This document shows, piece after piece, positions 3,697 through 63,085 of a stretch of DNA of 64,000 bases. The stretch is from Aplysia californica (lineage: Eukaryota), in NCBI RefSeq assembly GCF_000002075.1, contig NW_004797388.1:689169-753168 (forward strand), in the 5' to 3' direction. The translations under genes and the position numbers were made by a program. Position 1 is the first letter of the stretch, and every line of letters begins with the position of its first letter. The notes under the pieces are model-generated. The model searched no databases, was not told the DNA's origin, and worked only from the letters and a program-made list of their open reading frames with translations.

Positions 3697-5302
3697 CTCT
3701 CTCTCTCTTGCCCTTTTTAACTCCCGGTGGAGCACAGGCCATCAACAGCATTACTCCAGCGAAGCCTGTCCTGAGCATCCTCTTCTATCTGTTTCCATGA
3801 TGTCCCTGCTTTTTCAATTTACTCTTGTACCGCTCGCCTCCATGTCATCTTTGGTCTTCCCTTCTTACGTTTTCCTTGTGGGTTCTACTTTAAAGCCTGC
3901 CTGATGATGCTTGTCGGGGGCTTCCTCAGGGTGTGTCCAATCCATTTCCATTTCTTCACTTGTATGTTTTCCTTTACTGGCCTCTGGCTTGTTCTTTCCC
4001 ACAGTTGAGCATTAGTGACTCGATCGTACCACTTGATCCCCACTATCCTTCGTAGACATCCATTTACGAAGCTCTGCAGTTCCCTTGCTGCTTATGCTGT
4101 GAGCCTCCATCCATGTCTCTGAACCATACAGTAGAACAGTTTTCACGTTTATTTTGAAGATCCTCAGTTTGGTGTTCAATCCCAGTTCCTTAGACATCCA
4201 CATATATTCCTGAGAATGATGAATGCTGCTCTTGCTTTTTGGATTCTGATCTTGATGTCTTCGTCTGTTCCCCCTGCCTTGTTGATAACACTTCCCAGGT
4301 AGGTGAAGGATTCAACATCTGCCAATGGTGCCCCTTGCAGAGTGATAGGAACGTCGGGTGCATTCATCCGTAGAACTTTTGTTTTCTCCGTGTGAATATG
4401 GAGTCCAACACTACGGGAGAAAGTCCTGAGGCGATCTGTTTTCTGTTGCATCTGGGCTCGACTGTGAGAAAAAAGTGCCAAGTCGCCGGCAACATCCAAG
4501 TCTTCCAACTGACTGGAAAGGGTCCACTGTATGCCACCGCGTTGTCCCGATGTCGTCTGTCTCATTATTCAATCCACTGCTAATAAAAAGAGAAAAGGCG
4601 ATAGCAGGCATCCCTGTCTCACTCAGGCTGTATTCACTTCAAATGAGTCTGTCCGCTGCGCTCCAAGTTAGACACTGCAACTCATTCCCTCATATCTTCT
4701 CTATCAATCCCACGAGCTTCTTGTCAGGTATTCTGTAGCAGCGCATGAGCTTCCATATTGAGTCCCTATCTAGGCTGTCAAAAGCTTTCTCGTAGTCGAC
4801 AAAGTTAACGTACAGGGAAGAGTTCCACTCTGTGGACAGCTCCACTATGATCCTCAAAGTTTGCAATCTGATCTGTACATGATCTCAAAATTACGAAATC
4901 CTGCCTGCTCCTCTCTTAGTTTTGCATCCACGGCTTCCTTCAGTCTTTCCAGTATGGTACGACTTAAAATCTTCCCAGGAATGGACAGGAGCATGATTCC
5001 TCTGTAGTTTTTACACTCATGCAGGTCTCCTTTCTTGGGTAGTTTCATGAGCAATCTCTCTCTCCAATCCTGTGGAAATTATTTGTTGTCCCATATCTTG
5101 CCAATAATTCCATGAAGAATCCCTGACGCAGTGTCGATATCTGCCTTGAGAACTTCTGGGGGAATTCTATCTGGGCCGGCAGCCTTGCCTGCTATCTGGT
5201 GTCTTTTATCGCCTCCTTGATCTCCTCTAAACTAGGCTTTTCTTCACTCACCCCCAGATCAATCTCTGCTGGTGGAATGTCAAACAGTTTTTCTGGCCTT
5301 GG
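3697..5302 (-). mobile_element. RTE-clade non-LTR retrotransposon, degraded 3' part (runs into a gap)
   Basis: [63 protein letters not shown]; frameshifts; (AG)n tail. Confidence 0.93.
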
Positions 5303-11568: not shown

Positions 11569-11850
11569 ATGTCAGACAGCGAAGATAGCAATTTTTCTGG
11601 CAATGAAAGTGATGGAGGAGAGGACAAAGCTGGGTCAGATGATGGAGATGCCAGTGACAAAAATGAGGGCAGCGATCGTAATGAGGACAGTGACAAAGGA
11701 GATGACAGCGACAAGAATGATGACAGTGATGGGGAGCAGGACAACTCGCAAGATAAGAATTTGAATGATGATGAGGCAGAGGAAAGTGATGGCGATGGAG
11801 AGAAGGACGATGGCGATGAAGAGGAGCCTGAGGGAGAGGACCTTGATAAT
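11569..11850 (+). CDS. SUPT5H: SPT5 coding exon 1 (acidic N-terminus)
   Basis: Acceptor ttaatag|11552, ATG 11569, [15 protein letters not shown]..., donor gtaagt at 11851. The acceptor implies an upstream 5'UTR exon. Confidence 0.92.
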
Positions 11851-14800
11851 GTAAGTTAAAATAAAAATGTCAGTATTTATTTTTGTTATTATTTACTTTT
11901 GCTAATTGCATGAAAACTGTTTTGTTCTACTCTCTAATTCAATAACCATCTTTCATGTTGACTCTTTATGCTCTGATGTAGGATTTCTGTGATATTTAAG
12001 TCTCTAAATTTTTAGTTTTCACTCGAAAAAGAAAAATGTTGAGGAAGTGAAGTGTTCATACATGATTATCATCATTGATCTGTGATGACTTGTATCTGGG
12101 AGATTTTGAACTTTTATTTCATATTTCAGGAAGAATTTGATGAAGAAGAAGATGAAGAGGAAGAAGCTAGACCGAGGAAGAAAAAACGGAAAGGAGCCCT
12201 TGGGTTCATCATTGAAGAAGCTGGTAAGAATAGAAAAGAAATAAAGTCAATTATGGCATGTGTTCTGGGCCTAAGCAGCTCAGCTCGGGGGAATAAATAT
12301 TATATAATATTGTATTCTTTGAGGGAAGACAAGGACTATGCAGAGGTGGTTGGAATTATTTTGAGTAAGTATGCACAAAAGTCATTTAGAGGATGGGAAC
12401 CACAGGGGGAGAGGATCATCATGGCTTCATTCACTACAAGGAATAAGAGCATCAAGATGAACATAATTCTGATCTATGCCCCAACAAATGAAGCCTGGGA
12501 TGAAGACAAGGATGCTTTTTACAGCCATCTCCAGGGGGTCATCGACAAACTACCAAGGAAGGATGTCTACATCATAATGGGAGATTATGCCAAGATTGTT
12601 CACAACAACATAGACTATGAGGTAATCATGGGACAACATGGCTTGGGACAAATGAATGAGAACGGAGAGCGTTTTGCAAATATCTGTGCTTTCAACAGTT
12701 TTGTCATTGGAGGCTCTGTTTTTCCCCCACAAGAGGATCCACAAGGCTACTTTGGTATCACCGAATGGCGTGACGGAGAACCAGATTGATCATTTTTGTA
12801 TCTCATCTAGGTTCAGGCGTTCACTGGAAGATGTCACAGTACAGAGAGGTGCAGATGTTGGATCGGATCATCATCTGCTGTTAGCAAAACTCAATCCGTC
12901 TCAAAAAGCACGGAACCAGAATAGGAACCAAAAGAACGAAGTTCCAAGTAAGTGTCATAGATGGACACAAGAAAGAGGAGTTTTAACTGCAGTTGAACAG
13001 ATTTCAACCCTTGGCGGATCTTGGTGAGGAGGACATGGAGGTGGAGATACACTGGACCAAGGTCAAAGAAGTCTTTACTTCAACATGTCAAGAAATACTT
13101 GGTGAGAAACTATTGGAGCACAAGGAATGGATTAGCAAATGGTCATTGGATTTGATTAGCACTAGAAGGCAATTGAAAGCAGAGACAAAAGCAAGTAGAA
13201 CAAGGGGATCAAAAGCGGATGCATTGGAGCAGTACAGGACAACAGCTAAAGATGTAAAGAGATCATTAAGAAAAGACAAGGTGGAATTCATGAACAGGCT
13301 GGCAGAGGAAGCAGCAGCAGGAGGGAACATGCAAATCCTTTACCAGACTACAAAGACTTTTTCTGGAAAATATGGGAAACCAGAAGTAACAGTAAAGGAC
13401 CAAGAGGGAAAAACCATTTTTTGAAAGGATGCTCAGTCAAGACGATGAGTAGAGCATTTCAACAGTCTACTGAACAGACCACCACCAAGTAACCCGCCAA
13501 ACATCCTGCCAGCAAGAAATGAGTTACCATTGTGCTGTGATGCTCCATCAAAACAAGAGATTATGGATGCCATTAGGAAGCTGAGCAATGGTAAAGCGGC
13601 CAGTCCTGATCAGATTTCACCTGAGGCCCTGAAAGCAGATACCAATGTGACGGCAGACCTCCTTCTCCCATTGTTGAGCAAGATCTGGAATGAGAACGAG
13701 TTCCCAATAGATTGGAAAGAAAGACACCTTGTGAAGCTTCCTAAAAAGGGGGATCTCAGCAACTGCAGCAACTACCGAGGAATCACTCTTCTCTCAATAC
13801 CAGGTAAGGTCTTCAACAGAAGCATTTTGGAGAGGATCAAGTCCCCAACAGATCCACAACTTCGGGATGAACAGGCTGGTTTTCGGAAAAATCGGTCAAC
13901 CATGGACCAGATTGCCACGCAGCGGATCCTTGTGGCACAGTCCCTGAAGTGGAACTCCCTGTTGATCGTCAACATTTTTGACTATGAGAAGGCCTTTGAC
14001 AGTATAGACCGAACAACACTGTGGAAGATACTGAGAAATCACGGAATCCCACTGAAGTTGGTTAACCTCTTCAGGAGCATGTATGAAGGGACGAGTTGCA
14101 GGATTATACATGATGGCCAGCTCCTTGACAGCTTTGACATCAAGACTGGTGTTTGACAGGGATGATAACTATCACCTTTCCTCTTTATCTTGGCAATTGG
14201 CTGGCTGATGGATGAGGGAAGCCACCAGAGGACACAGAAACGACGTACAGCGGACACCATGGACACAGTTGGACGATCTGGATTTTGCAGATGACTCGGC
14301 GCTTCTGTCACTCACTCAGGAACAGATTCAAGCAAAGACCACAGTTTCAAACAGCCTATCTATCAGAGTCTGTTGAATTGAGGATCCACCCTGGAAAGTC
14401 AAAAGTCCTAAGGATAGATGCACTACGAAAGGAGCAAGTCACAGTAGAGAGAAATGCACTAGAAGTAGAAGACTTCAAATCCATTTGCTATTTTTGGAGT
14501 ATAATTGACAGAAAGGGAGGAACAGGGGCTGAAATAAAATCCCATATTGTAAAGGCACAGACTGCATTTATTTCTTTGGACAGGATTTGGAGGACCAGGG
14601 ATATCTCACTATGAACAAAGCTGAGAATTTTTAACCTAAATGTGAAGTCAGTCCTGTTGTATGGATGTGAGACATGGAATGCATCTCAGACATGCATAAA
14701 GAGGATCCAGGTTTTCTTGAACAAGTGTCTGAGGAAGATACTGAGGATCAGATGGACAGACAGGATCACCAACGGGGAAGTATTTAGAAGAACGAGACTG

Positions 14801-17800
14801 AGCCCAGTCAGAGATGAGGTGGGAAGAAGACGCTGTCGGTGGATTGGACACACTTTTCAGGAAGTCAAGCAGCTGCTTAACAAGGAAAGTGTCTGATTGG
14901 AACACACAGGGTAAAAGATCAAGGGGAAGACTACGTGGAACCTGGAGAAGAGTCACGGAAATGGATGTACAGAAAAGTGGGAAGACATGGAGTTACATCA
15001 AGCAACTTGCCCAGGATCGGGAAAGGTGGAAAGTGTTTGTTCGTGGCCTATATCCTGATCCAGTGTGAAAAAAGCAATGATGATGATGTCATGTGTTATT
15101 CACAATTTATGTTTCTTCAGGGCGTTGGTGTGTCCATTATACTGACTTTTTTTTTGTGGCTATGACCATAAGAATGTAAGGCGTACCTTCAGCATCAGTG
15201 TCGCTGGTCATTCTCTGCTCAATTTGTGTCAAGCTATGCTGTCAAATGGGAAAGATGAATGCTCTCAGATGATGTCAAAGTTCAGAGGAGTGCGATATAT
15301 TTTAAGATAAATGCAAATCAGAACTCCAGCCATAATGTAAATGGTATGGTTCATGAGAAAAGGGTATCTGTCAATGTTGGTTAAGCAGTTTAAAGATTCG
15401 CATGTGCATTCGCAGGTGGTTGGTGGGTGCTCTTATGTGGTTAGCTTTTTCTTTCCTATCAAACATCTGTTGTCCTCATCTCTCCTCGTACTTTTTCATA
15501 CTTGTTACTCTCTTGTAACATCTCTAATATGCGGCACTTCCGCGACCTAATTCTGTTGCAAGTGCAGTAAAACACTTGTTAAAACAAAAAGCATGTGCAT
15601 CCTTTTTCTTTGCAAAACTATGAAATGAGGTTAAACTTACTTTGTAAAATCAACTCCTGTATGCTACTGAAATTGACTCTTTTTTTCTTTTTCTTTTCCA
15701 GATGTTGATGATGAGGATGATGAAGATGATGTTGAGTGGGAAGATGGTGCTGAAGAGATCATTGATCGCAAGTCTTCATATGATCCAACTGAAAGAGAAA
15801 TTGAGAGCCATCAGAGGCTCAGGCATATTTGGGAGTAAGTGTTGTCGTTCAAGTATCATAAATCGTAAAAGTTGTACTGTATGTCTCTTGACAGTTCTAT
15901 GCTCTGTGTCTGAGGGGAATATTTTCACTCTGTCAGTGCACCCACCTGTTAGTTTGTTTAGAAACCAGGCAAACAAAAGCCTTGCTATGCCAAGCATTTT
16001 GATTTATATTTGTTGGGAGACTGTCAAACTAATTTCTGTGCCAACTAATTTTTTGACAGCTCTGCTATAAATTCTGTTAGCTGCTGAATGCTTTTAAGTT
16101 AACTTCACTAATGGAGTAATCAGGAAGGGTACAAGAAGTATTTTCATTATTTCTGAATACATATTATAGTTTTGGTTGATATTCTCATTTCAAGAGCTCT
16201 TTGTCTTGAGGCGTAATTTTTTTTCAAGATTGAGATGCGTGCTGTGATGTGAATTTTTCAGAATACAAGTGTTACTGATGAACCACTATTTATTTTTGCT
16301 CTCATTCAGGAGCCAGCGTGAAGATGAGATTGAACAGTACTACCGTCAGAAGTTTGGAAATGTGTCTACTGCCGAGAGATACGGAGAGGGTGAGGAGATG
16401 TCTGATGAGATCACACAACAGGGACGACTGCCAGGTGTCAAGTGAGGACTTTTCTTTCTGGATTGATAACAACATAACAAAAAGGGCTTTTCTTTTTACC
16501 ATGATTGAACTGAGTTTTAATAATGGTAGTAATAGTAATAATGATATCCACACTCTACAGCATGCCCTGTGCGTTTTATAAACATTATTACCTCAGCCGA
16601 CCCTAGAACACTCGGAGACATTCTCGGCTTCCCAGGAAGCATACACTGTTTCTTCTGAAACAAAATTTCAGTGACTATATATTAGTTTTTGTTTTTCTTG
16701 TGCTTTTGTCTATTTCCCAGTTCAGTGATATTGATTTAAAGCATGCCAAAGAGCTGTTCTCTCAGGTTTCTTTTTTTTGGCTGATAGTGTCCAATTCTAA
16801 GACAGTTTTGGCATCAGTAATGGATGACACATGAATGCACCGGAAAATAAGATAAGATAATACTTCACGACCCCAGTGCTTTCTTTTTGCATTTCCATTC
16901 TTTTAAACAATAGAAATGTGTCCTTTTTCTTATGCTCACTCTTTATTATGAACTGTTTCCGCTATTAAAAATGGAGATTCGACAAGAAAGCATTGAGGTC
17001 GTGACTTTATTGTCCCTTTCAGAAATTTTCTGTGGCTGTACAGGAATGGTAAAACAATGTAGATACATGGAATTTAGATTGCATATTACTTTCATGAAAG
17101 AATTTCAATATGAAGAGAAAAATAAAGCTGACAATATTACAGCAGGTCACATCAGATGCATCTCTCAAGTCACTTGCTGGAATATATCACATATTTTGAA
17201 ATTTACATAGATATATTCATATGATATATTATGTGCATTGATCAAATAACAATAATACACATTAATATTCACTTCGACAAAGCCATGGTAGGAAACTTCC
17301 ATTATCATTATGTCTTTCGTATTTGATTCTTGGTGTTATGTATCTGCCATTTATGTCTTTCTTATTTGATTCTTGGTGTTATGTATCTGCCATTGGGTCA
17401 TCTTAAAATTTCCTTGGAAAGGGGGTGTGATGGGTCTGCCATATTTGCTATTCTTTTCCAGGGATCCCAACTTGTGGGTGGTCAAATGTCGCATGGGAGA
17501 AGAGAAAGCCACAGTGGTGCACATTATGAGGAAAATGATAGCCTATCAGTTCACAGATGAGGTAAGATCTGTGGACGAGTTATTGTGTATTTTATTTGGA
17601 TTTCTCCAGTTTCGCTCTGGTGATCTTAGATCGTTTTGCACCAGCAATATATTGTAAAAGAAGAATTAGTGTAAGGAGACCAAATTGTCCTGACTGTGTC
17701 AGCTCTGGGAGAGCAGCAGGGTCTGTGACTCTTTTGAGGAATTTGAAATAGGTGTTCCAGAATGAGTTCGATTAGATGGTGAACTAGAGGTCATAAAGTA

Positions 17801-20800
17801 TATTGCAGAAAAATTTAGAGATGATCATTGGAAGTATTTAAACATGGAAAGAACCAAGGTAGGTCTAATAGTTACTGGTAAAGGAGGGTAAAAAAGCTTT
17901 TAAAAACTAGTCAAACTGGTTCACTTTTTTTCCAAACCATATTATGTTGAAAGACATAGTTTATTGTTCTGTGTAGGACTTGGGTTCTGTTTTAAAAGGG
18001 AAGACTTCTGAAAGTGAAACTTTGAGACTCCAGGGCTTGCCAAGGGCTGGGGGTTTGGGTATGTTACATGTTGGCTAATGCCTGTTTTCTGTTCAGGCTA
18101 GTAAAAACTGACCAAATACTTGCCTGAATTGTAAAAAGAAATTTTTTGGACAGATATGAGTTTTTGGGGGGTTTTTTTGTCATTGTTGTACCAGTGTTGC
18201 TCATAATTCTGCCTCTCTTTTTCAGCCTCTGCAAATCAAGTCCGTTGTGGCCAAAGAAGGACTGAAAGGTTACATCTACATTGAATCTTATAAACAGACC
18301 CACGTGAAACATGCGATTGAGGGCATTGGAAATTTGAGGATGGGGTACTACAAACAGCAGGTTGGAAAATCTGAGTGTTGTGTATGAATTGTGTGCATAC
18401 AAACTCGGGTGTCGGAATGTTTGTATATTGGCAAGAGCGTTTGTGCTCCTTCTTTTGTTTGTTTCTTCTTTACTGAATGTCCCCATATGTTTATCATGAT
18501 ATTTGTGCCTTTTCTCTGAAACCAGAAGTGTTTGGGCTTGAAGTACCATATCATATTGGCTGAAGTCAGTTTTTGTAGTTGCACCATGAACTTCTCAGGT
18601 TTTGGGAGTTGTTTTTTTTACCGTGAACTTCCCTCTTTAAAGTACTGATGTAATGGTCTATTTTGACATGCTTCCATGATCTAGGATGAAATTCTGAAGT
18701 TCTAACTTGTAACATTGTTTGATTTGACTTCATTTCGAAGTCGCAATTTTTAAACCTTATAAAAAGATGTTTTTTTCACTTGGATGTATTGTAAGCTCAG
18801 ACAGATTTGAATGAAACTTTAATATTACTAAGTAATAGCAAGTGCAGTTTCATATGAAATACCACTTCTGACATTAACATCCTCGTCCCTTGTATTTAGA
18901 TGGTTCCCATCAAAGAAATGACGGATGTGTTGAAAGTGGTGAAGGAGACAGCTAGCCTTAAGCCCAAGGCATGGGTGAGACTCAAGCGAGGTGTGTTCAA
19001 AGATGATCTTGCACAGGTGAGTTTCACTTTTGGCTCTTAATGTATTGTAGAAAAACAGAAGGGAGGGTCTGGTTGGAAAAAAAAAACCTACTAGAGGCGC
19101 CCTTTGCCTCCTGTCATAAAACTGTTGTCAGGGACACATTGTGCTGATACTGTTGTCATGCCTGCACTGAGAGTGAGGACTGTGTTTTGTATTTCTTGAC
19201 AGACATTCTAAGTGGTGCCTATAGTTGCCGTTATCCATCACTGTTCCGGAAACTTTGTCCTTCCATAAGGCTTGATCTGTTGTAGCCTCAGTCTGTTTTA
19301 CTTTTAAAAAATAGTGGAAGGGGTATGCTGCCTGCCCGCCCTTCCATTCCCCCACCCCTTAGGTAGTTACAGTAAGAAAAGGGTGTTTGAAACTTAGTTT
19401 TGACAGTTTACATATCTTTTTTAGCGGGTCTGACCAAATTAATGAAAGTACTTACTTTCACAATATTTGAGTGAAGACGAGTGACATCAACACTCAGATT
19501 GCAATGTACAGTGTGTTTTGTCCGTCACTCCTATACAGAACAGTGAAGTGCATCAAAGTTTATTTTTAATTGTTTCTAAGTAACCACATTAACTTTTCTC
19601 TTTTTGTTAATTGTAAAAATTGATTGTCTCATGTTTTTTCTTTTATGGTCATCTCTGTAGCTTGCTGTCATCTCTATATTCATGTCTGTGTTGCTTCCAG
19701 GTTGATATCGTGTACCCCTCTCAAAATGAGGTTGATTTAAAACTAATCCCTCGAATCGATTACACCCGTCTTCGTGGGATCATGCGCACAACGGCGAGTC
19801 AAGAGCAACAGAAGAAGAGAAAACGGCGTCCGCCTCAGAAACTTTTTGATGTGGATGCCATCAGGTGAGATGAGAAGGATGTTTGCGTTTGAGCTTAACT
19901 CACTTTATTTGCTTAAAATGTTAGTTGCTTTTGTTAACTACCGTGTAATGGATTTATTTTAACTTGTGGTGTAATGGATTCATTTTAACTCGTGATATAA
20001 TGGATATATTTTATTTCCAAACTGATAGCCGGAAGCCAGTGTCTCACAACACTTTTCAGTGGACAGCAGCTTAGCAGAATGATCAAAATGAAATGACGTC
20101 CTTTCTGTTGTCATTCCAAATCAGGTTTGGGTATTTGTTTAGCTCTAGACTGTCCACATGTTGTCCACAATTTGTGACACTGTTACCATTATTGCCTGGG
20201 GGTAATTTCAGTTGTTGAATATTGTAGCTATATAAGCTTTGCCATCTGAACAAAGGTAGAAATTGTGTATATGTAAATAGGTTTGCACAATGTGGGGTCT
20301 GCTGAAAGCTATGGTTATTGAAATATAGAAGTTTGTTCTTCTCTACAGATCTATAGGTGGAGATTTTACCTCTGATGGTGACTTCCTCATGTTTGAAGGC
20401 AACAGATATGACAGGAAAGGCTTCCTCTTCAAAGTCTTCGCCATGTCAGCTATTGTGAGTCCTGCTTCCTCCTTTTCATTATGAACTATTTGATACTTTA
20501 AAATTAAGAGAACTTTGTATTATTTTAATCATGTTTGGTGAAGAAGCTGAATGGAACAATTGAAAGAGTAACCATGAACAATATACAGTGAAGTTCATTG
20601 ATGGGATTATGGTCAGAAAAACTTGACAAGAACACTCTAAATGGATCAATGCATGTTCTTAAGGTTTACAGATTACTTGTATCACTCTTTTTGAAAGAGT
20701 GGTTTACCATGCCCAATTTTAAAGGCTATTTTTTAAATGTTCATTGATAGTTTTACCTAAACATTGATGCTAAGTTTTCTTTTGGTTGTCAAGCTGAAAC

Positions 20801-23800
20801 ATTGCCATCTGTGTCTGCAATCTTGACGACTTGTACAATGGACTGGACAAATGAATGTTTTCGTTGTTCAATGGATAGTCTGCTAGGGGTATACGTTATG
20901 TAAATACAATAGTGTGCTGTAATTATTATTTGGGAGAGAAAGTATGGGTGTAAAATAGCAGAGGGGCTACTCTATGACACAAAAATATCTTGCTGTTCTC
21001 AGATTGCTGAAGGTGTAAAGCCAACTCTGGCAGAACTGGAGAAGTTTGAGGACCAGCCCGAGGGCATGCAAGTTGAGTGTATCCTTTGACAAACTCATGA
21101 TACAGGTCATGAAGACATTGTGCGTGGATAACTCGAAATGTTCTCAGTGGGTGGTTGGTGGGTATTCTATTGTGGTTTGCTCCTTCTTTCTTCTCAGATA
21201 TCTGTTGTCCCTGTCTCTCCTCCTTTTTGTGTGTATGTTACTCTCTTGTAACACTTCTAATCTTTGGCGCTGATATGGCCTAATTGTGTTGCAAGTCCCA
21301 TAAAACTTGTTTTAAGATTTTCTCAACTCTTTCTTCACAGCACTTGTCTTAGAGTAGGTAAGATTGTGCTCGTAGTCTTCTGAAATAAAGGGACACCCGT
21401 CCAAAGTTCACATGTGCTATCATGCTGATTGTTTTATACGCAGTTATGTTGCAATAAATGGAAAAAGAACAGTAGTTCTACTATTGTAACTTGCCCTGAG
21501 AAGATTCCTAGTTAATTTGTATTTAAAAACTGAAGAAACTGGAGTCGCTTTGAAAATGGGGAGAAGCATGTCATACTCTTGTTGTAAAGAATGGCCATAA
21601 GTTCTTTGCTAGGGGGGGGGGGGTTACTGGTGTACTGTAAAACTTTCTTTTTGTGTCTGAATTGGTCTTGAGGTTTATAATGTAAGTCACTCTATGCTAT
21701 TGTATTCAACCTTTTAGTCCCTTAAAGTGACACCGCCCAGTTTTGCAACTGATTTAGATAAAAGTAGATACTTGCTGCTGGTCTGTGACACTAACTTAGC
21801 TTTGTGAAACATTGCCGTCGAATACTTTTTTTTTACTCTTTACTTCTCTGAAAAGTGTAGAACAGTGTGTACTATTACTGAGAAACCAGTTTCCCCACTT
21901 CTGAAAGGTGCTTTTTTTATGCACTTTTGCTGTTTGTTTTTTAGAGCCTTTCAAAACATAACTGGTTGCAGAGTCATTCTGACCTATATCCTCATGATCA
22001 GAACTGTTTTTGAATGAGTGTGCTTGTATTTAAATTTCTCTATGATGAAATTTCTGTCGAGAGGTTTAGTTGAGAAAAAATGCATCGACCCTGTAGTTGA
22101 GATTGAGTTAGGCTCTAAGTATTGTGGTCCTTAACCATTAAATTCAGTGGTTCCAGAAAAGTCAGAGAATGAGATTGCCCACAACTTTGCCCCGGGCGAC
22201 TCTGTGGTTGTTTCCGAGGGTGAGTTGCTGAACCTGCAGGGTAAAGTGATCCGAGTGGATGGCAACAAGATCACCATCATGCCCAGGCACGAGGAGCTCA
22301 AGGTAAGAAGGCTGAGTGGGTTGTTGGTGGGTGCGCTGGTGCGGTTTGCTCCTTCTTTTCGATCAAACATCTATTATCCTTTTTGGGGTTTGTTACTCTC
22401 TTGTAACACCTCTAATCTTTGGCACTTATTAGACCCAATTGTATTGCAAGTGCAGTAATACTTTTACTAAGACAGAAAAAAGAAGGCTGACTGCTGCCAC
22501 TGGCCATGTATTTGTGGACCATGTGATGACAGGTGTGTGCATGTACAAGCCTCCGTGTGCAGTGGTTACGTGTTTGGTTTCCCTTTTCGATTTCGAAACA
22601 TGTATGGTTGTTTGCGCATATGGGAGAGAGTTTTTCGTTACAAGGTATATTTTTGTAGCAAGTGGCTATTCTCCGGCGTCGCGCCGGTCAATAGATCAGA
22701 AGCTATTCTCCGGCGCCGCGCCGCCAGTCTATTACTAATAATTTGTCGGCGCAGATTTGAAAATACCTCTCTCATCTGTTTGTCTTGGAAAAAAATTCCC
22801 ACAACTTTAACACTTCGAGCCACTTCCATTGATCTAGAGACGATAGGTTTTCAGACACAAACTGCCCCAATTCCTCCAATTTAGAATTATGTTAGGTGCA
22901 AGAAGAAACATGTTCACAACTATTGACGCGAGTTCATAACAAAGAGTGAGCATAAGAAGGAGTCACATTTTCACTGTTTACAAAAATGGAGATACGACAA
23001 GAAAGCACTGAAGTCGCGACATTATATCAGTTAAATTGATCTAAAATTACAACAAGAAATAAGTTAAACAGCAAGCTATACTATATGACTGGACACAAAA
23101 TCAATTTTGTTCGTTTAAATAAACGGAGAACAGCTTCCAATCTATTGACCAGCGCGACGCCGGAGAATAGCCACTTGCATATTTGTAAGATATTCCCACA
23201 AGGATTGGAGTGGGTGCTTTATAACTGTTGCTTGTGTTTTATTATTGTTTTCATGAGAATTAGGCTCTGCTAGCTACAACAGGCACTATCTTTGTCATTT
23301 AATAGCATGAAGTTTGCTTTGTGATTGACAGGTGCTCTGGTGTAGTTTGCTCCTTCTTCTCTCTCAAATTTCTATTGTTCTTATCTCTCCTTTTCTGTGT
23401 ATTTTACTTTATGTAACCTAATTATGCTGCAAATACTGTTAAAGTCTTACTAAGCGTTAACTAAAATTTGGCCTTGGTTGTGAACAGCTACAAATAATTT
23501 TTCAACTTAAAAGTCTTTCAGTGTGGGTGGTTGACGGGTGCACTGGTGTGGTTTGCTTCTTCTTTCCTTTCAAACATCTATCGTCATTATATCCCCTACT
23601 TCTTTTTTGTGTTTGTTACTCTCTTGTAACACCTCTAATCTTCGGCACTTATATGACCTTATTGTGTTTCAATACCGTAAAACACTTACTAAACAAACAA
23701 GTCTTTCTGTGTGAATTGTGTATAAATCTTCCAGTATTTTTTCTTAAAGTAAGCCGATGAGATTAGCTTTCTTGTTTACCTGAAATGCTTTTTATAGGTA

Positions 23801-50917: not shown

Positions 50918-52133
50918 TAATTAACGCGCTAAGAACGAAGCGGACACATAAGTCCGATCTGCAGGGCAGCAAAATATTTCAAAGCATTTTACAAAGACCA
51001 GTACTACGAAGCTGCATATATTTCAAATTATGCTAGTTGTTGCTTACCGTTTCAGGTTTTCGATAAAGGAAACAGAATTGAAAAAATCTGTTATGACATC
51101 GAGGTTATGCCCAAAAACATCTTATCTTCAGGCAATGTCATATGGTATGAACGCGTGTCCTCAAAAAGTTAACAGTCAGTTCGTGCAAGGGAAAAAGAAA
51201 ACAGACAAGAATGACAGAACGAAAGGAATGAAGTAGGACTAACAAGTGGCGCCCACCAACCACCACATTACAGTAAGCCCAGTGCCTCACTCCGATAAAA
51301 CAGTTGGCCAACGGTCCTTTCAGTGAGTTGCAGACAAGGAAGCCTGCTGACCTAAAGCAGCACAATCTTATCTTGAGCTGTGCTTCTCTTATTTTCATTG
51401 TTCTCCTCTCAACGACGAAACCGCAGGCCAACTGTTTTTGCCGAAGTGCGGCACTAAGCAAATAGTGAATATTTGGCCAAGACGATGTTGTGGAATAGAA
51501 AAGTGCCGAAAGATTATTTCGCCTTCTATGTCGAAGGTCCGTCGTTTACTGTATCGAGGTCGAGGTATCCTGTAAAACGACGTCTCGCGATTTCTTGACT
51601 AATAGTGTGTGTGCTGTTGGGCAAAAGAGAGAACATTTCTTCCTTCACGAAAATATTAAGAATAATCAACTTACAGTGACCGAGTGTTTAGTGAGTTCAG
51701 GCTCACAATAAATTTCAAACATACGTCGGTGACACAGCGCTTAGGTGGGTGGTCACAGGGATGTGTCCTTGAGCGAGACATTATAACCCTTGCTTAAAAA
51801 AATCCAGGGCCCTTGACAACGACGACCAGCAATGGTCTGTGTGTTTGTTGCATGTCTGTGTGTTTCAGTATGTTTATATCTGTGTATCTATGTACTAATG
51901 CACGAGGTCTGTCTCAGAAGTAAGTTTATCTCTTCTTTAAAATCAACCATAATTTTCTTTTTACAGACTTGAAATTTTGTGCATATCTACACAAACACGT
52001 TTTCTGTTCTAACCACGTATTGTATTTAGGCGTGTATAATATATTTTACTCCATTATTAACCAAAGTTCCCCAAGAGGATCAATAAAATATAATTATTTG
52101 ATATAGAATATGTTTTAATGTTGTCATTCACAG

Positions 52134-53761
52134 TGTCCAAGCCACGCCCCCTGTTTGCTGGGGCGAGGGAAGCCCTTCGGAGCTCCCAGTCGCTGAAAGC
52201 GAAAACTCTGGTAGTCAGCTGTATGGCGTTTATAATGCCTATCAGCGCCTCCTCCTACTTCGGAAACATCCTGATCTACCTCTACACCTACTACCACGCT
52301 CATCAGTCGGACATCTACATAGACTCGTTGTGGATCCTCACCACGTACAGGGTACTGGTGCCTCTTGGAATGCTCACCTCAAGCTTTGTGGGCAGATCCA
52401 TTGGCAACTTTCGTGCTGTGGCCTTGTTTGTTACATTGAAAGTTACTGGTGCGTTTATAAGTTTCTATACCATTGTAAATCCGATTGCTCTGCTGGTGAC
52501 ATTTGGTGCTCTGCAAGGATTCTGCGCTGGATGTTTATATAATTTAAGCTGGAAAATATGCGACAGTGGCATTGGCACTCACTCAGCGTTATCTAAGGGC
52601 GTTATGGCTTCCGGGAGTAGTCTCGGTGCCCTCGTCATTACAGGGTTGTCGTTCCTGGTTGTGAATCCGCACAACGAGCCGAGTGACGCGAGCGACGGGG
52701 GGATGAGGTACTTCACCAACCCAGCCATCGTGGAGCGAGTGCCCTACTTCTTCATAATGTTGGGTGCCTTCGGCAGTTTCATTCTCTATGGTGGTCTAGC
52801 GCTGTTATATATTTCTCAACGAATAAAGCCCGCGGAATCGGTGAATGAAGGTGGAGTAGAAGGAAAAGAAGAAAAAGAAACACTCCACATTGCAAATGGG
52901 GAAGAGGAAGACACCCTTTCCCAATCTGATTCAGAATTGACGAATTGCAATAAAAGAGCAAGGGACAAACCCGAATATGGGACACTGGAAAGAAAAAATG
53001 GCTGTCACTCCCAGCCCTCGACAATACAACGTGGGAGCGACGAGAGGTCAGGGGTCAGCAGAAGAGTTCCACAACCCCAGAACGAAAGTAAAACGCCAGT
53101 GCTGCAACACGGACAAAGGAAGGACTCAGAACCCACAGGAAATGGCTGTCATAAGTCAAATGCTTCTACTTACGGGCTTTCCCCGAATGAAGTACTGAGG
53201 ACTCAATCCTTCTGGGTCTTATGGATTCTTCATTTCCTCTTGAGTATCACCATGTTCATTCACTCAAGCCTGTTCAAAGAATTTGGGGAAAGCTACCTTC
53301 ACAACGACGCCCTGCTTACCATCACTGGTGTTTTGGGTCTCTTTTCGATGATGATTACGCGACCTTTTAACGGGATTTTTGTGGATAGGATGGGCTCCAG
53401 GGCAGGCCTTCTTCTAACTGGCGGCCTCTCGGCGATCTTCATCAACCTAATGATGGTGAGCCTGTACATATACCCGCCAATGTACGTGCTCTGGGTGGTG
53501 TGCGCGTTCTCGAGCGTGACCACGGTGTACACCCAGTTCCACTACTCCGTGCGAGAGATGTACGGGCCGGCCTACTACAGCACAAACGTCGCTCTCGTCT
53601 TCACGGCCTCTATTCCTGTATCTATACTCCTGCCGGCCATCGTGCCCTACCTCGTGGCCACACTAGGGTGGATGTACATGTTTCTCATTGCTGCAGCTTG
53701 CGCCTTTGTCTCCTTTGCCTTGTCGTGGACAATGCCTGCAAGAGGAATGGTCAAACTTTAA
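52134..53761 (+). CDS. Major facilitator superfamily transporter, oxalate:formate antiporter (OxlT)/MCT-like; one large coding exon
   Basis: About 540-aa ORF with two blocks of ~6 hydrophobic helices separated by a long hydrophilic loop; MFS motif-A-like GIFVDRMGSR; YFGNILIYL; EMYGPAYYSTN. The ORF-track start MLSFT overlaps an acceptor (ttcacag|52134), so the true start probably depends on splicing. Confidence 0.85.
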
Positions 53762-55439: not shown

Positions 55440-56467
55440 TCCTCATATTGAATTAGATATCTATTCCTTAGACAGTAAAGAATTACAACGCCGCCTGTGG
55501 TGTAGTGGTCAGGCGTGCTGTCATCACGCATTAGAAAGACTTGAGTTCGATGCTTGTGTAAAAAGAATTTTTATCGAGTGTCTCGGTCTGTCTGTAGGGA
55601 TGTTGTATCCTTCCAACCTGGGTTGGCGCTGAGAGACAGGGTCAAAACTCGCCGCCTGAATGATCTAAATTATGTCGATGGAGGGCTAAAAACACTTTAT
55701 AAAAAAATCTCTACTCATGTTCAAGTACACGAAACTACATATTTTAAATAACAACAGGGTTTAATTTTAATGCGTGTCTCTTCTTGCAAATGCTTGGGCT
55801 TTTTTTCACGAAATATGGAGACCGTCCTTTGTTTTGTTTTTCATTTAGGGCCTGTTTCTCCTGAGGTGCGAAATCTTCAGTTTTTGGTTGGGGTGTTTGT
55901 GTTTTTTTCTTCTGGTGGGGGAGGGGGGGGGCTTTGTTGTTTGTTTGTTGTTTTGTTTTTGTTGGTTTATTTATTTAGTTGGGGGGGGGGGGGGTGTTGT
56001 CACGTTATAATTATTGAACCCTTATTCTAATGTTAGTTTTCTCAAGAGGCGGAACCTCCGAATTTAACATTTGTCTCTCGGTATGACCGAGTCTAAAGGG
56101 TTGAGAGCCTTGAAATGTCAAGAACGCTCAGTCGGGATTCGAAACATGGCCCTCTGCTCTGTTGTTCAAGTGATACCAGAAAAGTTATCAGGGCACCCCT
56201 TTAAAAACTATAAAAACATGAAGATACAGCGTCTGTGAAAAAAAAGTTACCCACTTTATTTTTAAAACTGCTTTACACATTTGTCAGGACAGAATACGCG
56301 AGTTGGCTCAAAGCCGACGTTTAAAATTAATTTTTTTAATTGACTAAGAACACACCTACCAGACCAGAGAAGTTACACATTATAGTACTAGATCTGTAAT
56401 AATATAACCCATTTGCATCAGCCTGATAATGACCAACATAATCTGAACACACTACCCCCCCCCCTCT

Positions 56468-59205
56468 TTCGGATTGGATCGTGGAACGTTAGGACCCTTT
56501 ATAAGGCTGGAAAAACTGCACAGGTCCTCCAACAAGAGATGCACCGATACCAACTACACATACAGGGAATCAGAGACGCCCACTTGAATCAGTCTTGATA
56601 AAAGCGAATTAAAGAGGGCGAGCTTGTCATTTATTCAGGAAATGACAGCGAAGGACCACACAGGGAAGAAGAGGGGATGATCATATCCAAAACATTTTTT
56701 AAAAGACATTCCCGGGCTGGGAAGCGGACGGTCCAAGGATAATTATGGTCTCATTTGAAAGTAAGAAAGAACTCAAGGAAAGAGATGGCAGGAAGGAGGT
56801 CATAAACAGGAAAAGCATACAAGTGTATGCCCCAACCAATGATGCAGAAAAGGAGAATAAAGATGACTTCTACAACCGCCTGCAGAGTGTGATCGACAAA
56901 CGTCCAGGTAAGGACATCACCATTGTCATGGTAGACCTAAAAGCAAAGGTAGGATCAGACACTCGTCACTGTGAGAAAGTCATGGGCAAACATGGATTAG
57001 GAGAGGCAAAAAATAACGGGGAACGATTCCAGAACTTCCGTGCATTCAAAAACTTTGGAAGAACAATCTTCCCTCATAAAAGGATGTATAAGGTCACTTG
57101 GGTCTCCGAGGATGGAACAACGGAAAACCAGATTTACCTTTTTTTTTGTATTTCCCGAAAGTTTACACTTTCAACGTTAATGGCGGACGTCCGAGTCTTA
57201 CGAGGAGCAGACGTCGCATCGGACCACCATTTGATCCTTGGAATGTTGACCTGAAACTAAAAGGTTATGCACAAGTCACAACTGGAAGTCGTCAAAAGTA
57301 TGAAGTGAGCCTTCTGAAAGACCAAGTAAAAAAGAATGAATTCAAGCTGGAACTGAAAAACAGATTTCAAGTCCTTCAAGATCTGGATTGATGTGAAATA
57401 AACGAACACTGGGACAAGAAAAAAGAGGCAATAAATGCAACTTGCCAGAGAACCCTAGGACCCAAAGTCAACTCCAGGAATAAATGGATTTCACAGGACT
57501 CTTTAGACAAAGTCAAAGGAAGAAGAGAGCTGAAGGCTAAAGTCAACAACAAACGCATCCAAACTGAGAAACTCGCTGCACAACAAGAGTACACCGAAGT
57601 AAACCGGGAAGTAAAGAAATCCATCAAAAAGGACAAGAAGACCTACCCGAATGTCCTAGCCGAAAAGGCAGAGAAAGCAGAAACAGACGGAGACTTGCGG
57701 ATTGTACACCAGACAACAAAAACTCTTTCAGGTAGGTTCGGCAAGCCCACTTACCAGTGAAAGACAAAGAGGGAAAGACTATCTTCAAGCAAATTAACCC
57801 ATGGAGAGAACACTTTGATCAACTAGTGAACAGAAAACCAACCAGAATTTCTTCCAGCCAGAAATGACCTCTCAATAGTTACGGAACCACATTCGAGAGA
57901 AGAAATTTATTGCTGCAGCCATAACATCACTTAAGTCCCACATGGCAGCTGGTCCCAACAATCCCCTGAAGCCCTTAAGGCAGATAAAGATACATCAGTG
58001 GACCGTGGAAATTGTCTATGCTCTATTCTAAAACGTTTGGTAAGAAGAGGAAATACTATCAGACTGGAAGGAAAGCCGTGTAATAAAGCTGCCAAAGAAG
58101 GGAGACCTCGGCAACTGTAACATCTATAGAGGCATAACACTCCTGTCCATACCTGGGGAAGTCTTTAACAGAATACTCCTGGAGAGAATCAAGCTGGCAA
58201 CAGACGAGAACCTCCGTGGAAACCAGGCAGGATTCCGCAAAAACCGATCGTGTGCGGACCATATAGCTACTCTGCGCATCATTGTTAAGCCAATGCTTGA
58301 ATGCAATTCACCACTCGTGATCAACTTCATTGATTATAAAAAGGCATTTGACAGCGTGGACAGGGAAACTCTGTGGAGACTCGTGCGGCATTATGGAATA
58401 CCTGACATACGAAATCGTCAAGCTTGTGAAGGCCACCTATGATGGAACATACTTCCACGTCTTCCACGAAGGACAACTCTCAGAACAATTCCAAGTACAG
58501 ACAAGAGTGCGACAAGGATGCTTGCTCTCACCTTTTCTCTTCATACTGGCAATTGACTGGGCCATGAAAGAAACCCCCAGAGGCAAGCGCAATGGAATAC
58601 AGTGGATCCCTTGGCAGCAGCTGGACGATTTGGACTTCACCGATGACTTTGCACTGCTCTCTCACACACATGCTCGGATTCTAGAAAAAAAGCAAGGAGC
58701 TCAACAGCCTATCAAGGAGTGTTAGCCTACGTATACATCCGGGCAAGTCGAATGTAGTGAGACTGGGGAAAGTTTCAAGCCCTGCTATGATAGTGGAAGA
58801 CACTCCCTTGGAAGAAGTGGACTCCTTTACCTACTTTGGAATTGCCATCAATGAAAAAGGTGGAACCGAGACAGCTGTAAAAGCAAAAACCGCCAAGGCA
58901 AGGTCAGCATTCAATCAATTATCAAAAGTCTGAAAAGCAAGCAACATTTCACTGCGCACCAAGATTCGACTCTTTAACACCAATGTCAAGTCTGTGCTCC
59001 ACTACGGCTGCGAAACTTGGAAGACAACGAAGACAGTACAGAATAAAGTCCAAACTTGTGTCAACAGATGTATGAGGAGTATCCTAAGAATTAAGGGGCA
59101 GGAAAGAATAAGAAATGTAGAAGAATGGCCCAGGACAGAGATACATGGAAGGAGCGTGTATGTGGCCTATACGCTGTTAGTGGTGAAAGGCATTGATGAT
59201 GATGA
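56468..59205 (+). mobile_element. Near-full-length degraded RTE-clade LINE with an internal deletion near the 3' end
   Basis: RIGSWNVRTL, VYAPTNDAE, ASDHHL, VRQGCLLSPFLF, LDDLDFTDD, LHYGCETW; (GAT)n tail; TSD-like actacccc...ctct on both sides. Confidence 0.95.
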
Positions 59206-61690: not shown

Positions 61691-62656
61691 CATCACGATA
61701 TCTATAATTGGCCCGTAGAAATGACGCAATATAAGTGGTGAGGAAGAAGTTGCTGTTTGTGGTATGAAAGCAACACGGTAATCATTAATATTCCTATGTG
61801 ATAATCTAAAAGAACTTGTTTTTACAGAAAGTTTCAACTCAGACTGAGAGATAAATTACAAACCTAGCTACTAATACAGTAATACGATGACATTGTACAA
61901 GGTATGACATCATAAAGACATAATTAACATGCCAGATTATGCTGCCAGAACCAGATGGTCCCTGGACCATCTTTACACTTGACCCAATACCCCAGTCAAC
62001 ACACCAGTTTACTCATCAGTTCTTTCCCGCTGGGATTGCCGCTTATTTCCAGCTTGAGAACAGCAGCTCATAGTATGACCACCCCCAAGTTTGTCGCTCA
62101 TCGCTTGCTTCTTGCAAGCTGCAGTTCTTGCTTCGAGCTAGCTACAGCTATCACTTGTAATTGTAATGTGGTCGCACCCTTAGTAATATTTCCGGGGGAA
62201 GCCGAGTTAGTTGTTCGGTCTGCTGGGGTTAAAACAGTACATTGACATATAGTAAAGTGCATTGAGCATGCTATGGAGCAGGGTCACCTAACTACAGTCA
62301 CCTCACTAAAGTACAGCCAGCCCATGACAGGCAGATCGGGGTTCCCAAAGTCAGTTCGCCCTGCCTGCTGCCATGCTGGTAAAAAAGGAATCTGGAACTG
62401 TATGTTTGTAGAGTTCTCAGAACTTGGTCACCGTATTAATTCCAATATTTCATTGAACTGTGCAGTGCAAATAAAATGTACTTTTATAGACTTCATAAAG
62501 CTGTTGTATTGTTTTGTTTTGTTTTGTTTTGTTGGTGGTTGGCGGGTGCTCTGCTGTAGTCTATTATTTCTTTCCTATCAAACATTTGTTGTCCTAATCT
62601 CTCCTCCTTTTTGAGTTTGTTACTCTCTTGTAACACCTCTAATCTTCGGCACTTAT

Positions 62657-63085
62657 ATGTGAGGCAGTGTGGTGGAATCAGGCTCTCGTCAATTTTGGGG
62701 CATGTAGAGCTATTGGTATCATCTTGAAGCTTGTTCACTTTTCTTTATTTCAATGAACAAAATATCCATTTATCCTGAATAGAAGTCGAGATATTTGCCA
62801 ATGAAGGAGGTGGGGTCACCTGTTTTCAGAGGTAAAATTAGTGAGAAAATGGCCACCAAAGATTAGTTATTTCCTTAGCTTCATAGTCCGTGGTAACTGA
62901 AATTTACATTTTTTGTGCCTTTAATTAACGTTTTTAAGAAACAGAAATGAGTTCTTTAATGGGCATGAAAGGTGTTGAGCCAAAAAACAAAAATTTGATA
63001 AAGATTCACAAACCTGTGGAAAAATGCCAGTTTCTTCACTTTGATTATTTTTACGAGAGCCTGATTCCACCACGCTGCCTCACAT
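62657..63085. mobile_element. MITE nested inside a 185-bp retroelement copy
   Basis: 32-bp TIR tgtgaggcagtgtggtggaatcaggctctcgt; related copies at 60478-60917 (opposite orientation) and ~29130-29490. Confidence 0.85.

Follow-up and report, generated by a model that had tools for sequence, protein, structure and literature searches.

A U12-type intron in the SPT5 gene of Aplysia californica, likely an ancestral minor intron of animals

Which spliceosome removes the tenth intron of the SPT5 gene of Aplysia californica, and does the class of this intron date back to early animals or only to molluscs? The intron lies in a stretch of 64,000 nt (contig NW_004797388.1, positions 689,169 to 753,168 of the forward strand), hereafter the window, in which the features described below are numbered. 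Its splicing signals make it likely that intron 10 is removed by the minor spliceosome, and comparison with other animals that it is an ancestral animal minor intron kept by most molluscs and converted or lost elsewhere.

Intron 10 and its host gene

The coding span of SPT5 (the SUPT5H orthologue) covers positions 11569..41024 (+ strand), with 24 exons and 23 introns, and encodes 1094 aa. The gene model, obtained by hand-guided picking of exons in the window, runs from ATG to stop without an internal stop, all its 23 introns have GT-AG ends, and its protein is identical, letter for letter, to P0002, which goes by the name Aplysia californica SPT5 in NCBI/UniRef; hence the public annotation uses the same intron 10 junction. 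Exon 12 has a single match in the genome, and this is the sole SPT5 gene found there. The domains scoring above the Pfam cut-off are Spt5_N (the acidic N-terminus), Spt5-NGN and KOW1, 2, x, 4, 5, 6 and 7. Exon 10 (21003..21078, +; 76 nt) encodes the end of KOW1 (residues 313–436) and the start of the KOW1-KOW2 linker, its final base, T, being the first base of Leu447, while exon 11 (22148..22302, +; 155 nt) encodes the remaining linker and most of KOW2 (residues 462–511), so that intron 10 (21079..22147, +; 1069 nt, phase 1 within Leu447) falls in the linker between both domains.

The intron starts with a U12-type 5' splice site, GTATCCTTT (21079..21087, +) preceded by T at -1, carries the U12-type branch site TCCTTAAC (22128..22135, +; predicted branch A at 22134, 14 nt from the intron end) and terminates with the 3' splice site AG (22146..22147, +). 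The letters of the window at the donor are CAAGTTGAGT in the exon and GTATCCTTTG from the intron start at 21079, and those at the acceptor are GGTCCTTAACCATTAAATTCAG up to the intron end at 22147 and TGGTTCCAG beyond it. The consensus motifs of minor introns, RTATCCTT for the donor and TCCTTRAC for the branch site, are consistent with the examples in passages and tables of published papers. The class was tested by counting mismatches to these motifs, together with a chance estimate, in place of intronIC or PWM scores. Intron 10 shows 0 mismatches to the former at +1..+8 and 0 to the latter in its last 50 nt, the remaining 22 SPT5 introns show 3–6 and 2–4, respectively, and a perfect donor is thus combined with a perfect branch site in 1 of the 23 introns; the joint chance of both signals, calculated from the dinucleotide content of the introns, is 1.5e-7 per intron and 3.3e-6 over 23 introns. 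The predicted pairing with the 5' end of the genome's own U1 is weakest for intron 10 (-2.4 kcal/mol, compared with a range of -5.1 to -12.2 for the rest). Intron 10 did not stand out from the 23 introns by its free duplex energies with U11 and U12 (the U11 duplex is better for introns 9 and 14, the U12 duplex for introns 5 and 15). The initial annotation, which had called this intron U12-type and the other 22 ordinary, is borne out by these counts on both points. Its statement that there is no polypyrimidine tract holds for the interval between the branch site and AG, CATTAAATTC, from which an extended pyrimidine tract is absent; it does not hold as a distinction of positions -20..-3, where the pyrimidine share of intron 10 (0.65) is higher than that of intron 20 (0.59) and tied with those of introns 9 and 19.

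Splicing at 21078/22148 had also been claimed to give a continuous peptide, in agreement with the open frame and with the annotated SPT5 protein obtained here. Near the junction there are 15 in-frame donor/acceptor pairs, and only 21078/22148 yields GMQVELVPEK, as in the linker of gastropod orthologues; the 14 alternative pairs were rejected, as none of them restores the conserved linker. Read-through into intron 10 gives C-I-L-stop, ahead of KOW2. Three raw poly(A) RNA runs and one contig set were aligned to positions 19600–22240, and all four lack spliced joints as well as depth on exons 10–11, reads of conserved genes having possibly been filtered out; seven loose read ends show the join of exons 7 and 8, and nearly all aligned reads come from an intronic repeat. 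It is from annotation and homology that the intron 10 junction is known, and the RNA reads say nothing for or against its splicing or retention.

Of the RNA components of the minor spliceosome, U12 (134 bits), U11 (106 bits) and U4atac (91 bits) are each represented in the genome by one gene above the Rfam cut-off. The 5' start of U11, UAAAAGGGC, is capable of pairing with UCCUUU of the donor, and the U12 snRNA contains GUAAGGA, complementary to TCCTTAAC, and can pair with UCCUUAAC. U6atac was not found by the Rfam family search of the genome, a blank result that does not show its absence, and two U6atac motif matches were rejected by cmscan. The splicing signals, the U11, U12 and U4atac genes and the occurrence of the same signals in other molluscs (see below) together support the assignment of intron 10 to the U12-type GT-AG class. 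As to the major spliceosome, 17 matches to U1 lie above the cut-off, compared to one each for U11, U12 and U4atac, and a tandem array of at least 9 U1 genes with a spacing of ~3.1 kb is located at G000:C516:518523-550343.

The orthologous site in other organisms

The pattern KPTL-x-ELEKF, encoded 61 nt before the donor, was searched for in metagenome contigs and gave at least 117 loci; among the loci listed, 70 without a tblastn match to SPT5 were dropped and 47 had such a match, of which 45 were examined after omission of two plant near-duplicates (L103 and L105). Among the loci listed, 20 of these 45 break at the base identical to that of Aplysia intron 10. Three of them (L027, L121 and L051, two of which are distinct at the motif) have the U12 donor GTATCCTT following T, and L027 has in addition TCCTTGAC, 12 nt from its AG; in the tree, L027 and L051 cluster with bivalves with weak support (6 loci with too few residues were dropped and up to 12 near-duplicates removed, and L015 and L080 are misplaced long branches). 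The other 17 of the 20 same-base loci listed have U2 donors: 12 are annelid-like, 2 oyster-like, 1 is from an ascidian and 2 are from demosponges. The group of 12, which has no named member, was taken for annelids because it clusters with P0008 among lophotrochozoans; the ascidian locus L010 is closest to Phallusia and Ciona among its matches, the demosponge locus L099 to Halichondria and Amphimedon, and L062 was assigned by its likeness to L099. The homology of the sponge site rests on the fixed distance from the KPTL motif, as the linker varies in length. Among the 17 U2 loci listed, 14 have T at position -1, 1 has C and 2 (sponge) have G; as a conserved codon begins with this base and many of the loci are related, these counts are not independent. 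The ascidian donor, GTAAGCTT after T, is two changes (+4 and +5) away from the U12 donor and keeps CTT at +6..+8, which is present in 0 of the 22 other Aplysia SPT5 donors.

An intron close to the site is found in 5 of the 45 loci among those listed, 1 nt upstream in L068, 3 nt downstream in L055 and L090, and further on in L015 and L080. The intron of the crustacean-like L068 is a U2 intron of 83 nt in phase 0, and two decapod-like ORFs (P0043 and P0076) also imply a phase-0 acceptor at the codon equivalent to Leu447; one-base sliding of the intron, tied to class conversion, is possible in these three sequences. The last 20 of the 45, again among the loci listed, run through the site and are insect-, mite-, crustacean-, hydrozoan-, worm- and plant-like; some of them, for instance the intronless L072 (hydrozoan-like), L052 and L053, could derive from assembled transcripts and hence are no proof of loss. 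Four plant-like loci have a GT at the corresponding offset, which was discarded as a coincidence, the reading frame being continuous there.

Gene callers often extend the translation of a genomic exon into the following intron. A query with the 32-residue read-through of exon 10, which favours C-I-L matches, returned 77 proteins: 21 with [CRSG]-I-L, which is the translation expected of xGT ATC CTT and leaves the DNA letters unfixed, 10 having a different [CRSG] start, 30 vertebrate-like proteins that run past the site, 3 vertebrate-like that are spliced, and 13 others; P0279 was set aside as an unrelated protein. The placeable [CRSG]-I-L ORFs are mollusc-like, with best matches to Mytilus, Batillaria, Pinctada and heterobranch peptides. 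One ORF with this signature, P0215, matches L027/L121, the DNA of which confirms the U12 donor. In another, P0203, 25 of 25 exon residues agree with those of P0006, which comes from a Logan contig of 3.5 kb, is full-length and has the letters VE-L-VPEK; the junction is thereby supported in a close relative. On the acceptor side, five ORFs (P0022, P0049, P0164, P0165 and P0175) have L-N or S-L-T shortly ahead of the exon, and these residues may represent an in-frame U12 branch site. Three R-I-L ORFs (P0257, P0262 and P0268), with an annelid-like IADG start among them, are unplaced, as are further ORFs, and may come from non-molluscs. No U12-type copy at the site was assigned to a non-mollusc among the placed loci and the 77 read-through proteins.

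In 30 vertebrate-like ORFs (P0217–P0273) the exon runs 5–6 codons beyond the site and breaks after VVTES(T)G, and P0026 exhibits the matching vertebrate acceptor ahead of GKEREH; six vertebrate-like ORFs continue with G-I-[W/C/S], compatible with a donor beginning with GTAT. With p.Gln399 of the variant table in PMC11354595, in the portion consulted, as the starting point of a count along the mammalian sequence, human Val407 would contain the Aplysia junction, and Aplysia intron 11 would correspond to c.1374+2 of that paper. The initial annotation had raised the question of whether orthologues keep the intron: comparison of positions indicates that its class differs by lineage and that it is absent at the site in vertebrate-like ORFs. 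SUPT5H/Supt5 is not among the human and mouse minor-intron genes of PMC6717393 (0 matches in its 8 supplementary files, in which the control POLR2E was found), and SUPT5H has 0 matches in the consulted supplement text of PMC11347168; none of the papers listed by a literature search deals with a minor intron of SPT5, and two reviews name both Spt5 and the minor spliceosome. Aplysia californica is among the genomes of PMC10639083, the database of which, according to passages of that paper, classes every annotated intron analysed, and SPT5 intron 10 is probably included in this database or in bulk catalogues.

In its signals, intron 10 is no different from the GT-AG U12-type introns of animals and plants (intronIC/IAOD, PMC7367187 in part; MIDB, PMC6717393): the donor is RTATCCTT, TCCTTRAC lies close to the acceptor, no pyrimidine tract follows the branch site, T is at -1 and the phase is 1 (passages of PMC7367187 name -1U and a non-zero phase as typical of the GT-AG subclass). 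As in those cases, an old conserved gene houses a single minor intron alongside many major ones; the difference lies in the host gene, which does not appear in the lists for human and mouse. Another core transcription gene with a minor intron is POLR2E (human and mouse; PMC6717393 supplement), although that intron is AT-AC and occurs in mammals, whereas the one in SPT5 has GT-AG ends and is missing from the vertebrate site.

Origin of the minor class

Judged by the ascidian and mollusc sequences, the intron position predates the protostome-deuterostome split, and it probably predates the split of sponges as well. An ancestral minor intron would have been converted in place to the major class in oyster-like bivalves, the annelid-like group, ascidians and demosponges, and in vertebrates and arthropods it would have been lost or replaced by a nearby intron. 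The suggestion of the initial annotation that this could be an ancestral minor intron lost or converted elsewhere gains support from the U2 donors at the same codon and in the same phase in four animal groups and from the absence of the intron from the site in vertebrates. The ancestral minor class is favoured because conversion is nearly one-way, because Ciona and Helobdella have lost minor introns and because the ascidian donor carries the CTT remnant. According to passages of PMC7367187, class conversion needs as few as two mutations and proceeds almost exclusively from U12 to U2; the consulted parts of PMC10639083 describe molluscs as comparatively rich in minor introns, list Ciona and Helobdella among the lineages losing them and report that the leech Helobdella lost ~80% of its minor introns, chiefly by conversion.

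A removal of intron 10 by the major spliceosome, at the same or nearby sites, with the U12-type signals being coincidental or a remnant, is hardly credible: GT-AG ends are usable by either spliceosome and further in-frame donor/acceptor pairs exist near the junction, but both signals are perfect and common to bivalve-like DNA, the chance estimate of 3.3e-6 and the weakest U1 pairing of the 23 donors argue against it, and only the 21078/22148 join yields the linker of all gastropod orthologues. Or perhaps the intron is genuinely U12-type but derived, an ancient U2 intron that switched its class in the mollusc stem (or slightly wider) and reverted in oyster-like bivalves? Every placeable U12 copy is mollusc-like, and U2 donors stand at the same base in the sponge, ascidian and annelid-like loci, as they do in each placed non-mollusc locus with the intron, among them the sponge outgroup, whose -1 base is G; a single gain in molluscs takes fewer steps by plain parsimony, and the CTT remnant comes from one ascidian sequence only, all of which speaks against an ancestral minor intron. 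In the parts consulted, PMC11347168 argues for major-to-minor conversion via minor-like states and PMC2831892 gives one U2-to-U12 case in Diptera. We nevertheless consider a gain in molluscs quite unlikely, as conversion is regarded as nearly one-way (PMC7367187 and PMC10639083, in part), the sampled non-molluscs include listed minor-intron losers (Ciona and Helobdella; passages of PMC10639083), the ascidian donor retains CTT at +6..+8, and the unplaced R-I-L ORFs with the annelid-like IADG start may be non-molluscs. The small probability left to it reflects the fact that no U12 copy has been placed outside molluscs and that PMC11347168 and PMC2831892, as far as consulted, allow the reverse switch.

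The ancestral minor intron, which we prefer, would belong with the orthologous introns of mixed class (Table 1 of PMC7367187 and PMC10639083, in part), in which the same codon and phase are occupied by a U12 or a U2 intron depending on the lineage, and as in those cases the converted SPT5 donor is two changes from the U12 consensus. It differs from them in having no vertebrate, insect or plant copy at the site in our sample, which is why human-centred comparisons would miss it. Sliding of the intron, or its replacement, within a linker of variable length is suggested by the neighbouring introns at -1 nt (L068), +3 nt (L055) and +15 to +18 nt (vertebrates). The SPT5 site is a compact case of minor-intron turnover, with the intron kept, converted in place, shifted by 1–3 nt, replaced nearby or lost. 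The U12-type class itself is already well known, and the SPT5 intron is a further case with a record of class turnover; knowledge of the minor spliceosome is unchanged by it unless the class proves to have been gained in molluscs.

Possible consequences for SPT5 expression and other features of the window

In minor splicing, U11 and U12 recognise the donor and the branch site together, and U6atac replaces U11 for catalysis. For intron 10, the predicted pairing partner of U11 is the donor and that of U12 is TCCTTAAC, after which U6atac would take the place of U11. Given the weak pairing of this donor with U1 and its T at -1, production of full-length SPT5 mRNA would depend on the minor spliceosome; the basis for the poor use of such donors by the major spliceosome is given in passages of PMC11347168. 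If intron 10 were retained, translation would stop three codons in, before KOW2, and the transcript would likely be a substrate for decay. Exons 10 and 11 (21003–22302) comprise together 231 nt and are flanked by two phase-0 U2 introns, so that an mRNA lacking both would avoid the minor intron without a change of frame, at the cost of the KOW1 end, the linker and the greater part of KOW2.

It is possible that intron 10 acts as a modest brake on SPT5 output; the initial annotation had suggested that Spt5 dosage, and with it Pol II pausing and elongation, may depend on minor splicing. Could it have been kept in molluscs as a regulator of SPT5, with slow minor splicing limiting the mRNA and with a feedback loop between DSIF and the snRNAs? 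Such a loop is possible because DSIF helps to make the Pol II snRNAs U11, U12 and U4atac (the consulted parts of PMC5493778 describe these as Pol II transcripts and place DSIF/NELF and Integrator on snRNA genes of human cells). This role, which is compatible with an ancestral minor intron and adds a function to it, appears unlikely. The signals are conserved over gastropods and bivalves, U12 introns show ~2-fold higher retention than their neighbours and can limit output (PMC4615840, in part), and retention of intron 10 makes a stop before KOW2; conservation of the signals is, however, expected of any U12 intron, at least six animal groups, with one case inside bivalves, have converted or lost the intron, and passages of PMC10639083 attribute most minor-intron evolution to neutral processes. 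An indispensable switch accords less well with this recurrent conversion and loss, seen once within bivalves, than the largely neutral picture of that paper does, and retention of the intron through evolution was likely mostly neutral. Quite unlikely as well is the conjunction of a rare major-to-minor switch in the mollusc ancestor with a production of the Pol II pausing factor SPT5 that has since been tied, in gastropods and most bivalves, to a minor spliceosome whose snRNAs in turn require SPT5. Since both classes occur among bivalves, the effect of the minor class on SPT5 output can be tested directly.

A copy of a short interspersed repeat (21141..21317, +) lies inside intron 10, outside the splicing signals. 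This ~170-nt repeat has 12 copies in the window, all on the + strand and with 69–79% identity, 9 of them inside SPT5 introns; the other copies are at 15415–15580, 22312–22472, 23341–23417, 23523–23683, 26215–26386, 30431–30516, 30600–30748, 34253–34413, 44950–45093, 45455–45626 and 62531–62659 (all +). The copies are often located just downstream of a donor site, and the core of the repeat draws many partly matching RNA reads. Most of SPT5 intron 2 (3.5 kb) is taken up by broken endonuclease/reverse-transcriptase-like frames of a non-LTR retrotransposon at 12300–15060, similar fragments of which are present near 3900–5100, 31100–31650 and 56400–58700. Outside SPT5, an uninterrupted frame of 555 codons with hydrophobic stretches (52094–53758, +) is possibly a single-exon gene of a membrane transporter.
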